Below, one piece after another: positions 65-24,518 of a DNA stretch of 32,000 nt; positions within the stretch are counted from its first letter, which is position 1; each line of letters opens with the position of its first letter. The stretch comes from an uncultured bacterium (GTDB lineage Bacteria > Margulisbacteria > WOR-1 > CAVSGV01). The position numbers and the translations under genes were made by a program. The notes beneath the pieces are model-generated. The model ran no database searches and had not been told where the DNA came from. It saw only the letters and a program-made list of their open reading frames with translations. The stretch is from assembly GCA_963699255.1 (NCBI GenBank), contig OY969425.1:360001-392000 (forward strand). Reading direction: 5' to 3'.

Positions 65-216
65 AAGTCTGCCCCGCCTTTGCCTGCCCCCAATTTTTAT
101 GTTAACTTGAGATCCTGGGATACTTGACATCCTTTCTCTTTCTACATTTTTAACTCAAATTGTGATAAACTTCAGCCAGTTCAAAGATGATCTTATCTTC
201 TCGAAAGCAGGAATTA

Positions 217-2094
217 ATGAAAAGATGTTGCTTCATTCTGCTGGTGGCTTTGTTGTTGCCATTTGAAGCTTTTTGCGCCACGGGATCGATAGATTCCAGT
301 TACACCTATGATTACAGTCAGCCGCCGGAATTCCAGCCAAGCTTGAACAGCCAGTTCACGGCACTTTCCGCTGGAGTTACGGATATTAATGCGAACCCCG
401 CCGGGCTCATGCGGGTCAATACTTTTGAAGTGGCGGTCGGAATAAGCGGATTCGTTCAGAACCCAATAAAAAGCGATGAGAACAATGTTTACGTTGATGA
501 TGTGAATCTGGGCGGAATAGAGAACTCTCCCAATTCAAGGTCTTATATAAGATTTACGGATGACAGGTCCGCCGTGACCGCTGAGTCGAGGCCGATCACG
601 ATCAACGAGGATTACTCGAAGGGCGGCGGGATCAATTTCTTCGGGACGACATACAGGATGTCGGACTGGCTGGCGTTTTCCGTTAGCAGGAAACGCCCTA
701 CAGCGATCGCTTTTAACTATCAGATGCTTACTCCGATCCTCGTGGATGCCAGGGCGGATTTCAGGGGGGCATCGGTCGAAGCCGGGGGACCGGGTAATTA
801 TATTAATTTCAGGAATGACGGCACTATAGAGGTGGTAATCGGCGGAGTAACGATGGCAACGTCGGAGGTTGCCGCCTGGAGCGGGTTCTTGAGCCAGGGT
901 ACGGGCGAAGTGGATTGGGTGGACGGCACTTTTGACAACTCGATAGTGAACCAGGACGGCATTGTCATTTCTGCCGCGGCAAAGACCGGGCCGATCTCCT
1001 GGGGGCTCAATGTTATGCCCATGACCGTTGACATGCAGCTGAACAATGAGGTCTCTGTTGCGAGCGACAGCGGCAATTCCAATGTGATGTTCTATATACC
1101 GAATTTGGATTTCAGTTCGACATTCGACGCCCTGTCCTGGGTGACATACGAGTGCGGGACCCCAACCGGCTACAGGTCTATCGAGGTGGAGACACGCGCC
1201 GGACAGCAGATCGGCAAAGCGCAGATCGCCGGCAAATATTCCGCGTCCCTGACAAGGATGGACCTGGGGATGCAGTGGGATCCTGCGGACTTTATAAGCG
1301 TCGGCGCCGTATACGAGAACTTCAACGGCGCGACATTGGACCTGAAAGGAGTGGAGGTCATACAGGAAGTGGAGCACTGGGTGGACACATCATCCAGAAT
1401 GCCGACCCTTGAGGGGGCGATCTACTGGGATCCGTTCCTCACCGCGCCGACCCATGAAGTTGAAACGGAGAAGACCATAAGGAACGCCTTGAACTTCCAG
1501 CCGATAGAGCTTCCGAGAAAAATAAAGTTCGGAGCGGCGCTCAAGAAACCGATCATTTTTGCGGTGGATTGGGAGCGGTGGATGAATGAGTATGATTTTT
1601 CAAGCGATCCGGGACATCCGGAAACGGCGCATAACATATCTCTGAGCGATATTTCCTTTGTGAAGATCGGCGCTGAAAGCCGGATCATGGCTCTACCCAT
1701 GATAGTGAGGGGAAGCTTGACCGGAATGCTCAAGCCGACGTCGGATGATAAGGCCACTGAAAACAGCATTGATGACCTGTATAAGAACATTCCGATAGTC
1801 CCGGTGGATGGCAATATTTATTTCGGTTTTGGGGTCATGGACGGGGAGTTCGGGTTCGGAGTCGGCGGCGGAGGGCTGCCTTTAATTCAGGCGCTGATGC
1901 TTGACATGTCGTCGATCACAAAGGTATTCTACGCTAATGTTTATTATACAAAGGGGAACTGGCAGGTCAGCTATCTTATGACGATGGACCCGGTGCTGAC
2001 GGGTTTTTCATCTGACATATCAACGACGGCGGGAGAAGAAAGCAATATAAGGCTGATGCAGACCTCCACTTTAAGCTTAGGGTTTAAATTCTGA
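217..2094 (+). CDS. Outer-membrane beta-barrel protein, FadL/PorV-like, function unknown
   Basis: It has a signal peptide (MKRCCFILLVALLLPFEAFCA) and an early NANPAGL motif of the kind seen near the N-terminus of FadL/PorV-type barrels. The C-terminal strand ends LSLGFKF, with the terminal Phe typical of OMPs. I prefer the start at 217 (AGGA 4 nt upstream) over the ORF-track start at 187, which has no SD. Confidence 0.6.
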   Translation: MKRCCFILLVALLLPFEAFCATGSIDSSYTYDYSQPPEFQPSLNSQFTALSAGVTDINANPAGLMRVNTFEVAVGISGFVQNPIKSDENNVYVDDVNLGGIENSPNSRSYIRFTDDRSAVTAESRPITINEDYSKGGGINFFGTTYRMSDWLAFSVSRKRPTAIAFNYQMLTPILVDARADFRGASVEAGGPGNYINFRNDGTIEVVIGGVTMATSEVAAWSGFLSQGTGEVDWVDGTFDNSIVNQDGIVISAAAKTGPISWGLNVMPMTVDMQLNNEVSVASDSGNSNVMFYIPNLDFSSTFDALSWVTYECGTPTGYRSIEVETRAGQQIGKAQIAGKYSASLTRMDLGMQWDPADFISVGAVYENFNGATLDLKGVEVIQEVEHWVDTSSRMPTLEGAIYWDPFLTAPTHEVETEKTIRNALNFQPIELPRKIKFGAALKKPIIFAVDWERWMNEYDFSSDPGHPETAHNISLSDISFVKIGAESRIMALPMIVRGSLTGMLKPTSDDKATENSIDDLYKNIPIVPVDGNIYFGFGVMDGEFGFGVGGGGLPLIQALMLDMSSITKVFYANVYYTKGNWQVSYLMTMDPVLTGFSSDISTTAGEESNIRLMQTSTLSLGFKF

Positions 2095-7628: not shown

Positions 7629-8477
7629 ATGGCTAAGTTTATTAAATGGTTTTTGGTGTTTGTTTCTTTAACGGTAATATCAAACGCCGCGTTTGCCGCT
7701 GATAAGCCGTTAGTTTCTGTCGTTAAGGGCACAAGCATCGAAGCATCAGTAAGAAAAGCGATCGATCTTATCGGCGGCATGTCCGGCAAGGTAAAGAAAA
7801 ATGACAGGGTCATAATCAAGGTCTCGCTTGATGAAGCAAAACCTTCCGGATCGGGTCTTGTCACCAACGTTGAAGTGGTAAGGGCGATCGTAAAGATCGT
7901 CAAGGAAGCTGGGGCAAGGCGGATCACTATCGCGGACGGCTCTCTAAAGGCCAACACCTGGAAAGCGTTCGAAGCCGCCGGGTACGATAAAATGGCGAAA
8001 GAAGAAGGCGTTGTCCTTAAGGATATGAACTCGGACTATATATGGAGGGCGTGGCTTCCCGAAGGTGACTATCAATATAAAAAATACAGCGTATCTTTAA
8101 TGGTCCTTAACTGTGAAGTGTTCATAAATGTTCCTGTCGTCAAGCTTGCTGATGAGGCTTCCCCCTCGCTCTCTTTGAAGAACCTTTTGGGGATCATGTC
8201 TGATAGATGGGTAAAGAGGCGTCTCCCTACAGCGGAAGCGCTGGATGATCTCATAGTTGACATGAACTCGGTAAGGCAAAGCGACCTTGTGGTGATCGAC
8301 GGAACGGATTATGGCAACATGATAATTGCCGGCGATAACCCCGTTTCCACCGACAGCGTTGCTCTGAGGATGCTGAAGCTTGATCCGGATAGGATAGGTT
8401 ACATTAAACTTGCGGAGAGCAGGGGATTAGGAAAAAGCAGCGCTTCGCAAATCGAAGTAAAAAGCGAAAAGTTGTAG
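7629..8477 (+). CDS. Secreted DUF362-family protein
   Basis: It has a signal peptide (…ISNAAFAADKP). DUF362-like blocks are present (DRVIIKVSL…GLVTNVEVVRAIVKIVKEAGARRITIADGS; INVPVVKLAD…SLKNLLG; LVVIDG). The ATG immediately follows the upstream TAA. Confidence 0.6.
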   Translation: MAKFIKWFLVFVSLTVISNAAFAADKPLVSVVKGTSIEASVRKAIDLIGGMSGKVKKNDRVIIKVSLDEAKPSGSGLVTNVEVVRAIVKIVKEAGARRITIADGSLKANTWKAFEAAGYDKMAKEEGVVLKDMNSDYIWRAWLPEGDYQYKKYSVSLMVLNCEVFINVPVVKLADEASPSLSLKNLLGIMSDRWVKRRLPTAEALDDLIVDMNSVRQSDLVVIDGTDYGNMIIAGDNPVSTDSVALRMLKLDPDRIGYIKLAESRGLGKSSASQIEVKSEKL

Positions 8478-8591: not shown

Positions 8592-9377
8592 TTGACAGGT
8601 ATTAATAATATTCATAATGGCCTGGTGACAACTATTGGGGGGACAAAAACCTCCGTTGAAAAACTGGCTAAACAGAAAGAGAATGATCTTGACCAGTTCT
8701 CTGTAACCATTATTCCTGGCACGACCACTGCGAAAGTGCTTGGAGCACAGCTTGCGTGTTTGGGAATAAAAAGCGTTACTATAGAAGCGTTAGAGAAAAT
8801 TGCAGGCGTCGATAAAGTATTTGATAAAAATGAGATAATTCCACTTGATGACTACTTAGACAAGGAATTTGCTCTTTGGGGGATGCAAAAGTCAGGGATC
8901 GTTATTGATGATTGGATTAAGGAAAATCTTATTACAGATAAAGCCAAAGACCCGGATTATATTGGCGCATTAATAGAATTGCAGAAGTCAGGGATTAAGG
9001 TCAACGGCTTACTTATTGATTCTCTTTCTTTGGATAAAGGCCAGGATAAGGATTATATAAGCGCATTAATAGAGATAAAGAAAGGCGGAGTTGAGATATC
9101 CGCATCAATGGTCATTCATCTTGCTCGTGAGACAGCAAAAGACCCGGGCTATCGTCATTTGCTGATAGAGGACAAGGGTGATTTTAACAGGGCTGATATG
9201 GATTATATAAAGAAATATTTTATGGAGCATGCAAAAGGGAAAAAAGAAGAAGAGATCAATTCCGAGGTCAATAATCTTGATAGTTTGACAAGGCTCTACA
9301 TGGATAATTATAACACGGCTTTAGGACAGATCGTCCTTCAACGCATAACGCACATATCGCAATCAGATAAGAAATAA
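8592..9377 (+). CDS. Orphan repeat protein with four ~32-aa tandem repeats, no recognisable family
   Basis: This is an ORF with a TTG start, a good SD and its own promoter. The repeat units are …DDYLDKEFALWGMQKSGIVIDD…, DKAKDPDYIGALIELQKSGIKVNG…, DKGQDKDYISALIEIKKGGVEIS… and ETAKDPGYRHLLIEDKGDF…. At DNA level, GGATTATAT(TG/AA)GCGCATTAATAGA recurs at 8954 and 9050, 96 nt apart. There is no signal peptide or TM segment. Confidence 0.6.
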   Translation: MTGINNIHNGLVTTIGGTKTSVEKLAKQKENDLDQFSVTIIPGTTTAKVLGAQLACLGIKSVTIEALEKIAGVDKVFDKNEIIPLDDYLDKEFALWGMQKSGIVIDDWIKENLITDKAKDPDYIGALIELQKSGIKVNGLLIDSLSLDKGQDKDYISALIEIKKGGVEISASMVIHLARETAKDPGYRHLLIEDKGDFNRADMDYIKKYFMEHAKGKKEEEINSEVNNLDSLTRLYMDNYNTALGQIVLQRITHISQSDKK

Positions 9378-20443: not shown

Positions 20444-22594
20444 TTAGTCAGGAATTTGGATCGGCAGGGTAAAAGTAAAAGTGCTGCCTTTGCCAAATTC
20501 GCTATTAACCCCCACCTCGCCGCCGTGGGCTTCCACAAATAACTTGACATTCCACAGCCCGATACCTTTGTTTTCTCCGATTCCCGGTGCTTGTTGTGTC
20601 TGGGTCTCATCTTCAGCGCCGCGATGATTGAATCTGTAGATGTTTTGCAGATTATCGTGGGGGATGCCTTTTCCGTTATCAGCTACGGATACTTTGTAAT
20701 AATCTTTGCCGTCCTCGTTTATTATTTCGCCGGATATCCTTATATATCCCTTTTCTTTTCTGCCTTCCCTTTTATTGTATTTGATGGCATTGCCGAACAA
20801 ATTTTCCAGAACGCGTCTCATCGATTCCCGGTCGGCGTGGATCCTGATGTCCTTAAGGTCCTTATCCATATCCGGATCCACGATTATTTCAATATTTGCT
20901 TTTTCAGCCGGCCCGCTTAACAGTTCTTTTGTGTCAATGATGGCGTTTTTCAATGAAAAAGGCTGGCGGTTGATTTTTATTTGAAGGGTTTTGGAATAAT
21001 CAACGGCGTCTTTTAAAAGAGCGAGTTGCGCAATTGCGCGATGAAAGCTTTTTTCAATAATATTCGCATAATAAATCATATTGGCATAATATTTGCTATT
21101 TTTCAAATGAGGCGTTTTATTAAGCATTTCATCAAGGGCCTCTAGCATGAGCGGTACGAAGCCTGCCGCATTAAGGGGACTTCGAATGTCGTGGCCTATT
21201 CCTGCAATAAATCTTGCAAGGTTGTGTTCCTGTTCAGTGTAGACCTTGGGCTCTTCCGGCTTGGCATCCGGGTCTCCGTGCAATAAAGCCCATAAGTGTC
21301 CCGGCGCAAGGGTGATCGACATCGCTGTGCTGAGATCAATGTTCTTGTGTGATTCTTTTTCAGGGGAGACATCGATCAATTTGGATATTTCATTATCGTA
21401 AAGGCCCTGGTCAAAAAAGATGCCCATAAGGTCAGTAAGGTCAAATTTTTGTTCATTCTCAACATCCGTGTTGGCGATGATATATGCTCTTTGATCCTGG
21501 CTGCATCCTTTTTCAAAAAATAATATCTTATTGTTGGTATGGGGGAGCGGATGAATGATGTGTCCTTCTTCCGCGAAACACAGGTAAAGTTTTTTGAGTT
21601 CCATTAATTTTGTGATGAAATCGGTATTGTTAATATCACTACCGGAGGGCAGCAGGAAATGTTTTGATAGCATTGCCGCCAGAGCGGTGCGCAATTTCCA
21701 GGCCTCATTATTGTCTTTATATTCTTTGAAAGTGGGGTCGTTGGTCACTTTGTAGGTTTTATGGGTTTCCGCAAAACTTACGGAATCCATTTCCCTCATG
21801 TTTAAGGGCGAAACAGTGTAATGGGCCGTATCATCACGTAAATTCCAATATTTGGTATTGTTGAAATATGCGTCAAATCCGGCTTCATTTAAATCATTGA
21901 TGTCTTTGTCCCGGAACTTAACATTCATGATATCCCCGTTCCTGTTCCGAGTATTCGCCAAAAAGATAGTAGAAGGATATGGTTTTCTGATGTGACTTAT
22001 GGCTTTCTGCCAGAAGGAAAGCGGAGGCGAATTTGGATCATCAACGAGGATGGGGTTGTCGAAGGAAAACCCCTTTGCCCCGAGATGTGTATAATGCATC
22101 ATGATTTTTATCATAAAATTCCATACTTTTTCATTATTATAGTTCCAGAGGATAACATCTGTTCTTACTTTTCTTTCTTTTATTGGCCGTACCGGATGGA
22201 TCAAGTTCCTCTCCTTATCCCGCAAAAACCAATCATAGTATTTATTTTCTTTAGTGAAGGGATGGTGCGTGGAGGCATATCTCCAAGGCAGCTCCATTAT
22301 GGGCGTTAAACCTTTGATAGAGGCTTGATTTGTTACCTCTTTAAGCTGTAATTCATCAGAAAGAACTGTGACGTTGTTTTCCGGGGTTTCAAGGACAGAG
22401 GAAGATATGGCGAAATGATCGATGATCGCCTCGGGATTGAAAGGCTTTTGTTTAAGACACGGCGATAGCAGGACAGTATTAAAACCCTTTGTTTTCACAT
22501 CTTCAAAGATCATGGAGCATCGTCCTAAACCCAGCTTTGGCCCTAAATGTAAATTATAGATGCGCAGCGAATGTATGCTGTCCGTACGCTCCAT
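20444..22594 (-). CDS. Soluble histidine kinase with an N-terminal GlgE-like (GH13) alpha-glucan enzyme-like domain
   Basis: The C-terminal part has an H-box (GIGHDIRSPLNA), N-box (ENLFGNAIKYN), G1 (DNGKGIP) and G2 (GIGLWNVKLFVEAHGG). The N-terminal ~440 aa carries GH13/GlgE-like blocks (STHHPF, GFSFDNPILV…FWQ, IFLANT) and a domain-C-like stretch. No TM helices are present. An AAGGGG SD lies upstream of the ATG. Confidence 0.8.
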   Translation of the reverse strand: MERTDSIHSLRIYNLHLGPKLGLGRCSMIFEDVKTKGFNTVLLSPCLKQKPFNPEAIIDHFAISSSVLETPENNVTVLSDELQLKEVTNQASIKGLTPIMELPWRYASTHHPFTKENKYYDWFLRDKERNLIHPVRPIKERKVRTDVILWNYNNEKVWNFMIKIMMHYTHLGAKGFSFDNPILVDDPNSPPLSFWQKAISHIRKPYPSTIFLANTRNRNGDIMNVKFRDKDINDLNEAGFDAYFNNTKYWNLRDDTAHYTVSPLNMREMDSVSFAETHKTYKVTNDPTFKEYKDNNEAWKLRTALAAMLSKHFLLPSGSDINNTDFITKLMELKKLYLCFAEEGHIIHPLPHTNNKILFFEKGCSQDQRAYIIANTDVENEQKFDLTDLMGIFFDQGLYDNEISKLIDVSPEKESHKNIDLSTAMSITLAPGHLWALLHGDPDAKPEEPKVYTEQEHNLARFIAGIGHDIRSPLNAAGFVPLMLEALDEMLNKTPHLKNSKYYANMIYYANIIEKSFHRAIAQLALLKDAVDYSKTLQIKINRQPFSLKNAIIDTKELLSGPAEKANIEIIVDPDMDKDLKDIRIHADRESMRRVLENLFGNAIKYNKREGRKEKGYIRISGEIINEDGKDYYKVSVADNGKGIPHDNLQNIYRFNHRGAEDETQTQQAPGIGENKGIGLWNVKLFVEAHGGEVGVNSEFGKGSTFTFTLPIQIPD

Positions 22595-22660
22595 GATATT
22601 TTTCCCCTTAAAACGATCGCGAATAGCAGATGAACTGCTTTTTCATTTGGGATTCGTTTT

Positions 22661-22690
22661 GTTATACGCTTCTTTATCGGCCAATATCAA
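22661..22690 (-). promoter_or_regulatory. Candidate promoter for the histidine kinase gene (minus strand TTGATA-18 nt-TATAAC)
   Basis: The hexamers were read on the minus strand: TATCAA at 22685-22690 and GTTATA at 22661-22666 on the + strand. Confidence 0.3.
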
Positions 22691-22696
22691 GGAAAA

Positions 22697-22713
22697 TTTC
22701 AAATTTTTTGAAA
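22697..22713. promoter_or_regulatory. Inverted repeat TTTCAAA-TTT-TTTGAAA between the two divergent promoters
   Basis: Perfect 7-bp arms were read from the sequence. Direct GAAAATT copies flank it at 22692 and 22710. The region is AT-rich, so a chance occurrence is plausible. Confidence 0.3.
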
Positions 22714-22736
22714 ATTCTTTTTGATCTTAGCGATAC

Positions 22737-22765
22737 TTCAAGGTTTAACGCAAAGATGATATAAT
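22737..22765 (+). promoter_or_regulatory. Candidate extended -10 promoter (TTCAAG-17 nt-TGaTATAAT) abutting the ABC ATPase start
   Basis: TATAAT lies at 22760-22765 with TG at 22757-58. The ATG at 22772 follows after only 6 nt and there is no SD. Confidence 0.4.
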
Positions 22766-22771
22766 ACATAA

Positions 22772-23542
22772 ATGGAAGCAATAAAGGTTGATCACTTGAC
22801 CCGCAGATATAACGGCCTGGTTGCCGTTGATTCCATCTCTTTTTCGGTGGAGCAGGGCGAGGTCTTCGGTTTTCTGGGGCCCAACGGCGCAGGGAAAACC
22901 ACGACCATAAACATGCTCTGCACTCTGCTGAAACCGACCTCTGGCATCGCGCAGGTCGGATGCTGTGATGTCTCGAAAGAGCCGAACAAAGTGAGGAGAG
23001 AGATAGGCATCATCTTTCAGGACCCCTCCCTTGACGATCGATTGACCGCCGATGACAATCTGAGGTTCCACGGTTATCTTTATCACATGAAAAGAGAGAT
23101 GATAGAGGAACGCATCCCGGAGGTCCTCGAATTGGTCGAGCTCGGCGACAGGCGCGGGGAGATCGTGAAGAAATTCTCGGGCGGAATGAAGAGGCGGCTA
23201 GAGATCGCGCGCGGTCTCATGCACAGGCCGAAGATACTGTTCCTGGATGAGCCCACTATCGGGCTTGACCCGCAGACAAGGGCGCACATATGGGAATACA
23301 TCCTGAAGATGCGCAGGGAAACCGGGCTGACGATATTCATGACAACTCATTACATGCAGGAAGCGGAGGTTTGCGACCGCATCGCCATAATAGATCATGG
23401 CAACATAGTCGCACTGGATTCACCGGCAAAGCTTAAGGAAACATACAATGAAAAAACGCTTGAGGACGTATTCCTGAGGCTGACCGGAAGACAGATCAGG
23501 CCTCAGGAAAGCGGGTTCAGCGGACGGCGGTGGAGGAGATGA
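22772..23542 (+). CDS. ABC transporter ATP-binding protein (DrrA/ABC-2 type)
   Basis: It has Walker A (GPNGAGKTT), the signature FSGGMKRRLEIA, Walker B (ILFLDEPT) and an H-loop (TTHYMQEAE). Confidence 0.92.
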   Translation: MEAIKVDHLTRRYNGLVAVDSISFSVEQGEVFGFLGPNGAGKTTTINMLCTLLKPTSGIAQVGCCDVSKEPNKVRREIGIIFQDPSLDDRLTADDNLRFHGYLYHMKREMIEERIPEVLELVELGDRRGEIVKKFSGGMKRRLEIARGLMHRPKILFLDEPTIGLDPQTRAHIWEYILKMRRETGLTIFMTTHYMQEAEVCDRIAIIDHGNIVALDSPAKLKETYNEKTLEDVFLRLTGRQIRPQESGFSGRRWRR

Positions 23543-24297
23543 TAGTGCTGGAAGATATAGGCGCGATTTTCATACTGTGGCTGCGCGACCTCAAAAGATA
23601 CTGGTATGATAAGCCGCGAATTGTCGCGTCACTGGGACAGCCGCTGCTGTTCTTGTTCGTGCTTGGTTCTGCGCTTTCACCTTCCTTCCAGGGGCCGAAA
23701 GGCGTCACCTTCACGGAATTCATTTTTCCCGGTATATTATGCATGACCATACTTTTCACGTCTGTCTTTTCCGGTATGTCGATCGTATGGGATCGCGAGT
23801 TCGGCTTCCTTAAAGAGGTGATGGTGGCCCCGGTTTCGCGGTGGGCGATATCGATAGGGAAGGCGTTCGGGGGAGCGAGCGTCGCATTCATCCAGGGGGT
23901 GATCATGCTCACGCTTTCTCTTTTTGTGGGCGTCCGGCTTTCAATAACGGCGCTCATATTAAGTCTTGTTATTATGTATATGATAGCATTCGCGATGTCA
24001 TCTTTCGGGATAATGATAGCCGCAAGGATAAAGGAAATGGAAGGATTCCAGGTGATCGTCAACTTTCTGATCATGCCGATATTTTTTCTTTCGGGAGCGC
24101 TGTTCCCGCTTGACCGTTTGCCGGCGTGGCTGACGTTTTTAACGCGAATCGACCCGTTGACCTATGGCGTAGATCTCCTGAGAGGGACAATGATAAATGT
24201 TCATGCTTTTCCTTTGACAGTTGATGTCCTTACAATAGGCTTGTTCGCGGTCGTGATGCTCGGTATAGCTGTAATAGAATTCAACAGGTTGGATTGA
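23530..24297 (+). CDS. ABC-2 type transporter permease
   Basis: It has about six hydrophobic segments at 255 aa. It overlaps the ATPase gene by 13 nt, which is the typical DrrB-like arrangement. Confidence 0.85.
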   Translation: MEEMIVLEDIGAIFILWLRDLKRYWYDKPRIVASLGQPLLFLFVLGSALSPSFQGPKGVTFTEFIFPGILCMTILFTSVFSGMSIVWDREFGFLKEVMVAPVSRWAISIGKAFGGASVAFIQGVIMLTLSLFVGVRLSITALILSLVIMYMIAFAMSSFGIMIAARIKEMEGFQVIVNFLIMPIFFLSGALFPLDRLPAWLTFLTRIDPLTYGVDLLRGTMINVHAFPLTVDVLTIGLFAVVMLGIAVIEFNRLD

Positions 24298-24307
24298 ACT
24301 AAGTAAC

Positions 24308-24390
24308 TGCCGCGGAGAGGACTCGAACCTCCATGCTGTTTAGGCATACGCTCCTGAAGCGTACGTGTCTACCAATTCCACCACCGCGGC
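24308..24390 (-). tRNA. tRNA-Leu (anticodon CAG), class II with long variable arm, CCA not encoded
   Basis: The minus-strand sequence GCCGCGG-TG-GTGGAATTGGTAGACAC-G-TACGC-TTCAGGA-GCGTA-(variable arm)-GGAGGTTCGAGTCCTCT-CCGCGGC-A folds as a cloverleaf by hand. Confidence 0.9.
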
Positions 24391-24427
24391 GCTTCGACGA
24401 ACTCAATTGATCCCGATGATTTTTTAA

Positions 24428-24511
24428 TGCCGCTGGTCGGAGTCGAACCGACATGAGGTAAACCTCACGTGATTTTGAGTCACGCGCGTCTGCCAGTTCC
24501 GCCACAGCGGC
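24428..24511 (-). tRNA. tRNA-Leu (anticodon CAA), class II with long variable arm, CCA not encoded
   Basis: The minus-strand sequence GCCGCTG-TG-GCGGAACTGGCAGACGC-G-CGTGA-CTCAAAA-TCACG-(TGAGGTTTACCTCAT)-GTCGGTTCGACTCCGAC-CAGCGGC-A folds as a cloverleaf by hand. Confidence 0.9.
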
Positions 24512-24518
24512 ACTTGTC

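Follow-up and report, generated by a model that had tools for sequence, protein, structure and literature searches.

A putative soluble histidine kinase with a GH13-derived pseudoenzyme domain as its input half

An intact 716-codon gene joining a GH13 fold to a histidine kinase core

The gene described here lies at positions 20444–22594 of the minus strand of a 32,000-nt stretch of contig OY969425.1 from an uncultured bacterium, hereafter called the window. Its product joins a GH13-fold domain, predicted to be catalytically disabled, to a histidine kinase core. We read the protein as a soluble orphan sensor histidine kinase in which the GH13-derived pseudoenzyme domain is the receptor, and put the probability of this reading at about 0.6. 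The gene and its domains are arranged as follows.

20444..22594 (−): whole coding sequence, GH13-like pseudoenzyme domain plus HisKA/HATPase_c core, 716 residues
22604..22609 (−): Shine-Dalgarno-like AAGGGG, 9 nt 5′ of the ATG (M1)
21560..22594 (−): GH13 domains A and B, residues 1 to ~345, (beta/alpha)8 barrel
21275..21547 (−): GH13 domain C-like beta-sandwich, residues ~350–440 (ILFFEKG, AYIIANT, ITLA and LWALLH strands)
21191..21262 (−): linker, from conserved K445-P446 to H468
20960..21232 (−): DHp (HisKA-type) helical hairpin, residues ~455–545, with an extended inter-helix segment
21191..21193 (−): codon of H468, the phospho-acceptor His, in H box GHDIRSPL
20456..20833 (−): HATPase_c catalytic domain, residues 588–713

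As the initial annotation of this DNA had proposed, the gene is a single uninterrupted open reading frame (ORF). It has an ATG start. The public NCBI record (P0001, 689 residues) starts at M28. We assign M1 as the true start by homology, because residues 1–27 are conserved in P0002 and P0003, the two closest homologues, and residues 10–16 (LRIYNLH) line up with the conserved beta1 sequence RIYNLFP of stand-alone GH13 relatives. The M28 start removes barrel strand beta1 and calls for correction; the gene call on an independently assembled contig gives the full 716 residues. The gene was also thought to be more AT-rich than its neighbours, which is true but modest: its GC content is 42.4%, versus 47.7% for the window, and its third-position GC content (GC3) is 47%, versus 53–67% in neighbouring genes.

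The unusual architecture is by itself the only ground for suspecting that an assembly chimera or a frameshift joined two genes. Logan contig L008 from ERR10755942 carries an identical ORF among the same neighbours, and the fusion recurs in P0002, P0003 and P0006–P0010, on other contigs and samples. Homologous fusions, eight in number, are found on syntenic contigs within one uncultured lineage. The independent contigs refute a chimera, which we regard as having practically no chance of being correct.

The kinase half is a HisKA-type core

Residues ~455–716 carry every element of a complete HisKA-type core, as had been proposed. Pfam HATPase_c (PF02518) matches residues 588–713 with 75.7 bits (cut-off 26.4). 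The Pfam HisKA match of the window protein is below threshold (14.9 versus a cut-off of 26.9), while its orthologue P0008 clears the same cut-off at 35.6. Alignments with NCBIfam kinase models and with solved kinases, HK853 among them, span residues ~453–713 and identify H468 as the phospho-acceptor His. In addition, the N box (598–606), the G1 box DNGKGI (639–644) and the G2 box GIGL are present, and none of the four boxes (H, N, G1, G2) is missing from any member of the fusion family. The kinase is probably dimeric.

HK853 (2c2a/3dge), WalK and PhoR have the same DHp and HATPase_c core, with alignments over residues 459–712 at E-values of 1e-15 to 1e-16, and share the four boxes with the window protein. 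Their inputs are transmembrane, PAS, HAMP or periplasmic, whereas the window protein has an enzyme-derived barrel of ~440 residues connected to DHp by a short linker. No PAS, GAF or HAMP domain was matched in the window protein by Pfam even at E ≤ 1, and no transmembrane helix is predicted, since the most hydrophobic 19-residue segment scores only 0.99 on the Kyte-Doolittle scale. A soluble kinase whose input is wholly of GH13 fold, with no other sensor domain, is thus what the searches return, in accordance with the initial annotation.

The input half has a GH13 fold

Residues 1 to ~440 form a GH13 (beta/alpha)8 barrel followed by domain C, at a significance far beyond chance. Searched alone against the PDB with phmmer, the sequence of the window protein finds only GlgE chains, with marginal significance (E ~7e-4, residues 107–218). 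A profile built from the three closest sequences of the N-terminal domain gave 383 matches at E ≤ 1e-3 when run with hmmsearch against 1.84 billion proteins. Seven of the 383 fall below 1e-30; six of these are the same kinase fusion, the exception being P0005, a 402-residue fragment. The next tier (E 4e-30 to 1e-10) comprises proteins of ~430 residues that score on Pfam Alpha-amylase and hDGE_amylase and are named "starch synthase (maltosyl-transferring)" at JGI and "alpha-amylase" at NCBI. Pfam Alpha-amylase (PF00128) gives no match to the window protein at E ≤ 1, and fusion members P0006, P0009 and P0010 pass its 22-bit cut-off with 36.2, 27.9 and 27.0 bits. When the profile includes stand-alone relatives, it matches AmyB of Thermotoga neapolitana (4gkl; 1e-42), 3dhu of L. 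plantarum (4e-39) and, near full length, GlgE (7.5e-33) in the PDB. A scan of genome contigs matched only distant Bacteroidota and Lachnospiraceae GH13 genes.

The fold is also recovered by structure prediction. An AlphaFold2 model based on an 83-sequence alignment, used in place of a 3-sequence alignment whose model was useless (predicted local distance difference test, pLDDT, of 37), has a pLDDT of 84.2 and a predicted template modelling score of 0.88. It shows eight beta/alpha repeats, with barrel strands at residues 11–16, 40–44, 97–101, 175–179, 210–214, 242–246, 270–274 and 312–316, and a C-terminal beta-sandwich that covers the strands previously picked out as domain C-like. Foldseek against the PDB places seven GlgE structures at the head of the ranking (E 7e-22 to 4e-21, TMq 0.64–0.70), followed by 3dhu, TreA and AmyB; there are 1104 matches at E ≤ 1e-3, and all among the best 50 of the 1104 are GH13 enzymes. 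The motif strings that had been read by eye are all present, and the placement of the N-terminal ~440 residues in GH13 holds by both profile (E down to 4e-30) and fold.

The input domain is neither GlgE nor GH13_48

The domain had been called GlgE-like, which is true in part. GlgE (GH13_3; S. coelicolor 3zss, M. tuberculosis 4u33) is the best fold match, is the only PDB family matched by the single sequence of the window protein at E < 1e-3, lends its function to the JGI name of the nearest stand-alone relatives, and resembles the window protein in an S-x-x-HP(W/F) stretch following beta3. On the other side, the barrel of the window protein starts as early as residue ~10 and lacks the ~210 residues of N-terminal domains that come first in GlgE, where residue 215/235 is the counterpart of profile position 9. 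No GlgE model was matched in the NCBIfam scans, and AmyB and 3dhu rank ahead of GlgE by profile. Furthermore, in comparison with GlgE (EC 2.4.99.16), the window protein has lost the catalytic Glu and the second Asp and is fused to a histidine kinase.

The "DNP" block that had been taken as typical of GlgE, whose nucleophile motif is RVDNPH, does not stand as evidence of kinship. The resemblance arises because a 6-residue insertion, NPILVD, follows D179. Basal fusions and all stand-alone relatives read (R/K)xDAAYxVP at this site, and the alignments indicate that the block was not inherited from a GlgE-like ancestor, its NP coming from an insertion specific to the subclade of the window protein.

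By sequence similarity, the closest relatives of the domain are compact GH13 enzymes of ~430 residues, AmyB/GH13_48-like. AmyB (4gkl, GH13_48) and 3dhu have an A-B-C layout of ~420–450 residues like that of the input half of the window protein and are its best PDB profile matches; they are active and have the full catalytic set, whereas the window domain appears to have lost catalysis and gained two loop insertions. GH13_48/49 are marked by a Cys directly before the nucleophile, and region VII ends in GQ in GH13_48 (PMC11239784). The stand-alone relatives of the window domain have this Cys, but their region VII ends in G(Y/F)E, as in GlgE, and the window protein itself departs from the GH13_48 signature with F178-D179 and PSGS. 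The absent N-terminal domains, the NCBIfam result, the profile ranking and the region VII readings lead us to file the domain as a member of the GH13 fold and superfamily, and as neither GlgE nor GH13_48.

The catalytic centre is predicted to be disabled

We compared the seven canonical GH13 active-centre residues with 28 stand-alone relatives, in which they are nearly invariant.

Y55 (stacking Tyr): 28/28 relatives; E55 in the window protein
H106 (region I His): 25/28; Y106, region I NH reading R105-Y106
R177 (two residues before the nucleophile): 25/28; S177
D179 (nucleophile position, end of beta4; 22058..22060, −): 22/28; kept
E214 (acid/base Glu, end of beta5; 21953..21955, −): 23/28; N214
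H278: 27/28; kept
D279 (transition-state Asp): 25/28; K279

The window protein thus retains two of the seven residues, D179 and H278, and departs from the GH13 pattern of a catalytic Asp/Glu/Asp triad with regions I–IV (NH, GxRxD, E, HD). Region IV (21758..21769, −) reads E276-T-H278-K279, as had been reported, where active relatives have ESHD, so that its His is kept and its Asp is replaced by Lys. The nucleophile Asp, stated to be kept, is indeed found at the end of beta4 in the window protein, but P0002, P0003 and P0005, which include the closest orthologues, have Glu there. Likewise, the replacement of the acid/base Glu by Asn is correct, although its position, supported by alignment and model, is 214 and not 213. 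One MAFFT run aligned D185 as the nucleophile; D179 takes that position in the model and in the alignments by HMMER, hhalign and the remaining MAFFT runs, the hhalign run being circular (one alignment was contained in the other) and used only for the register at this residue.

Specifically, with five of the seven residues replaced, the catalytic centre is judged to be disabled, as had been proposed. That the protein is an active bifunctional enzyme-kinase still performing glucan transfer or hydrolysis would fit the Asp at the nucleophile position and the retained H278, and is nevertheless very improbable given N214, K279, S177, Y106 and E55 in place of key residues and the loss of even the Asp in orthologues.

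Two insertions lie on the active-site face, one after beta4 and one after beta5; in the alignments, both are specific to the subclade of the window protein.

22040..22057 (−): 6-residue insertion NPILVD, residues 180–185, right after the nucleophile position
21923..21949 (−): 9-residue insertion RNRNGDIMN, residues 216–224, after beta5, low pLDDT

The barrel-top motifs FDxYxN, W195 and HP, common to active relatives, persist.

A lineage-restricted family of fusions with graded loss of the active centre

The fusion genes lie at the following related loci.

L001: tandem P0002 and P0007 followed by thioesterase-nadB, with the ABC exporter divergent from P0002
L012/L014 (116-kb contig): tandem P0008 and P0010 between accDA and thioesterase-nadB
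L009: P0006 between a divergent ABC exporter and the thioesterase
L010/L011: P0009

Among the 237 proteins collected, the kinase core is limited to the fusion family, and the fusions are monophyletic in a neighbour-joining tree. They form a gradient from the near-enzyme P0006 to the most derived subclade, that of the window protein. P0006, the least derived fusion, keeps four of the seven active-centre residues (H, R, D, E); one or two of seven are left across the subclade of the window protein, and no fusion member has the full set. The loss at the catalytic site is family-wide, and Y/H/R/D/E/H/D is what the stand-alone relatives retain. For P0006, the start has been called too far 3′ (L009:1722-1784); an upstream ATG gives MSSIRRAPQLRIYDV and restores beta1, as in the M28 miscall.

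The family is rare. A word-index search of 5.8 billion clusters returned only three clusters, and two metagenome-contig scans returned no family members. The AccA encoded in the window shares 94% identity with the AccA of the 116-kb contig, and its nearest named relatives, at 62–67% identity, are from Candidatus Margulisiibacteriota and Saganbacteria, so that the lineage is probably Margulisiibacteriota-related, a weak placement. Another unusual architecture occurs in the same clade: P0016 (848 residues) is a stand-alone-type GH13 relative fused to radical SAM and SPASM.

A full-text literature search on fusions of GH13 or other glycoside hydrolases with histidine kinases found no relevant description, in line with the earlier statement that no characterised kinase is known to have such an input. 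As far as our searches reach, the protein is a histidine kinase with an input domain undescribed in the literature searched, an entire GH13 fold serving as the only, cytoplasmic input.

The kinase gene diverges faster than its flanks

The loci differ most in the kinase gene itself. Between the window and L012, the closest genome, flanking genes are 84–96% identical at the amino-acid level, with synonymous divergence (dS) of ~0.5–0.6, nonsynonymous divergence (dN) of 0.02–0.08 and dN/dS of 0.04–0.13. The whole kinase gene is 45% identical, with a dN of 0.455; dN is 0.58 in the N-terminal domain, where dN/dS is ~0.4, and 0.30 in the kinase core. Between the window and L001, the kinase gene is 53% identical versus 80–89% for the flanks, and its dN is 0.35 versus 0.06–0.16. 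Across L001, L012 and L009, kinase genes are 35–52% identical and flanks 76–96%. By these estimates the kinase gene diverges about ten times faster than its flanks. Low-identity alignment, older allelic lineages or paralogue replacement may contribute, because dS, too, is higher in the kinase gene than in the flanks. Each genome has one copy or two in tandem, and the GC and GC3 of the family genes are below those of the flanks at every locus with comparable flanking genes.

In the P0008 copy, an N-terminus lies in frame 5′ of the called start and is interrupted by a TGA at a conserved Trp (L012:7776-8030, TGA at ~7875-7877; also in L014 and L013). Recoding of TGA as Trp was considered and rejected: TGA serves as stop more often than any other codon in the window (15/28), which makes a nonsense mutation likely.

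These data raise the question of whether this orphan kinase is decaying or has become functionally relaxed, its GH13 part a drifting remnant with no role in sensing. The N-terminal dN/dS of ~0.4 against L012, versus 0.04–0.13 in the flanks, the GC3 below that of neighbours at every locus and the TGA at a conserved Trp would all be expected of such decay. However, the window ORF is intact over 716 codons and identical in two assemblies, and five independent contigs retain the open frame in spite of ~50% divergence at the amino-acid level. The kinase motifs and the linker length are conserved in all members, the 51% identity is spread over the whole N-terminal domain, and many positions are invariant among the three closest sequences. 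In addition, dN/dS is well under 1, at ~0.1 against L001 (0.11 overall, a value that reflects saturated dS) and ~0.4 against L012, the latter measured on the orthologue with the nonsense codon. Decay is accordingly improbable.

A receptor model for the GH13-derived domain

Our chief reason for thinking that the barrel controls the kinase is the linker. In seven of eight members the phospho-acceptor His follows the conserved K/R-P that closes domain C at a distance of 23 residues; the remaining member has 27. Such fixed spacing amid ~50–65% sequence divergence is expected of a mechanically coupled input.

We propose that the barrel, with its domains A, B and C, would descend from compact alpha-glucan-active enzymes of ~430 residues and have been turned into a non-catalytic receptor. 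A cytoplasmic ligand or partner may fill the remodelled pocket at the top of the barrel, which would have been reshaped by the two subclade-specific loops after beta4 and beta5. Occupancy would shift domain C, and hence DHp helix 1; this movement would set the balance of kinase and phosphatase activity at H468, and the phosphoryl group would pass to a response regulator encoded elsewhere. The weakest step is the signal, for which the simplest guess is a molecule derived from alpha-glucan (a malto-oligosaccharide, maltose-1-phosphate or the ends of glycogen), a guess weakened because five of the seven subsite −1 residues are replaced.

Several observations weigh against the receptor reading. 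Specifically, Y55E, H106Y, R177S, E214N and D279K argue against canonical glucose binding, Pfam Alpha-amylase misses the window protein, and its HisKA score is under the cut-off. The kinase-gene dN of 0.35–0.46, versus 0.02–0.16 in flanks, together with low GC3, could mean relaxed constraint, and a nonsense codon interrupts the orthologue of the closest genome. Furthermore, no response regulator (Response_reg) was found in any window ORF, as had been reported, or in the related loci searched, and no alpha-glucan gene in the window or in the 22 kb around the locus on the 116-kb contig.

The same dead barrel could instead be a module for protein interaction, scaffolding or localisation, like the ectodomains of 4F2hc and rBAT, perhaps co-evolving with a fast-changing partner. 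We consider this a serious alternative, although distinctly less probable than a receptor. Only one or two of the seven sugar-contacting residues are left in the subclade of the window protein, the dN of the N-terminal domain is 0.37–0.58 versus 0.02–0.16 in flanks, and co-evolution with a variable partner would account for both this hypervariability and the changes between one and two tandem copies. There is also precedent for GH13 pseudoenzymes as non-catalytic subunits (PMC8537225): 4F2hc and rBAT keep the GH13 fold, have lost catalytic residues and act as the non-catalytic module of a larger machine (PMC8537225). Unlike the window protein, they are eukaryotic, extracellular and membrane-anchored, with SLC7 transporters as partners and no signalling kinase. 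The basal members P0006 and P0009 retain more of the sugar-binding set, which does not favour a scaffold; nor do the barrel-top motifs, which persist as in active relatives, or the gene neighbourhood, in which no candidate partner is conserved beside the gene. A PADLOC scan gave no defence-system match for the kinase.

As for a receptor, the concept of glycoside hydrolase and carbohydrate-binding modules as a sensing part is familiar from the RsgI-type anti-sigma factors of Clostridium thermocellum. Those proteins are extracellular and single-pass membrane-bound, use other glycoside hydrolase families and involve no phosphorelay.

If the ligand is an alpha-glucan metabolite, the receptor would report the state of carbohydrate stores directly to a phosphorelay in a little-known lineage. 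The family keeps intermediates of the proposed enzyme-to-receptor conversion, with P0006 at four and the window protein at two of the seven active-centre residues, and would be a compact natural model of how a pseudoenzyme turns into a sensor. More tentative, and in our view doubtful, is the broader proposal that these lineage-restricted cytoplasmic kinases use the dead GH13 barrel as a rapidly diversifying receptor. They would then form a new class of intracellular receptors derived from enzymes, with diversifying selection acting on their specificity, and storage-glucan state, or a variable glycan or partner, could be linked to a phosphorelay.

Gene neighbourhood and other features of the window

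Divergent from the kinase gene, a DrrA/DrrB-type ABC-2 exporter pair passes the NCBIfam drrA and drrB cut-offs; it adjoins the kinase in L001 and L009 as well and is missing from L012. The intergenic region contains conserved elements, and a promoter-like site follows the kinase gene.

22772-24297 (+): DrrA/DrrB-type ABC-2 exporter pair
22595..22771 (unstranded): kinase/exporter intergenic region, with TGAAATTT(T/C)CC and CGATAA, conserved in L001 and L009
20370-20398 (−): sigma-70-like promoter match between the kinase stop and a YbgC-type thioesterase, TTACCA, 17 nt and TATAAT with an upstream TG, 10/12

The two conserved intergenic elements are a possible shared regulatory site. The strong promoter-like site preceding the thioesterase suggests that the thioesterase-nadB unit is transcribed on its own, and the kinase is therefore probably monocistronic.

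Elsewhere in the window, two ORFs have no Pfam, NCBIfam or PADLOC match: one of 635 residues at 187-2094 (+), and one of 261 residues with a TTG start at 8592-9377 (+), which falls within the lowest-GC stretch of the window (gene GC 38.7%, GC3 38.5%). Two adjacent tRNA-Leu genes, with anticodons CAG and CAA, lie at 24308-24512 (−).

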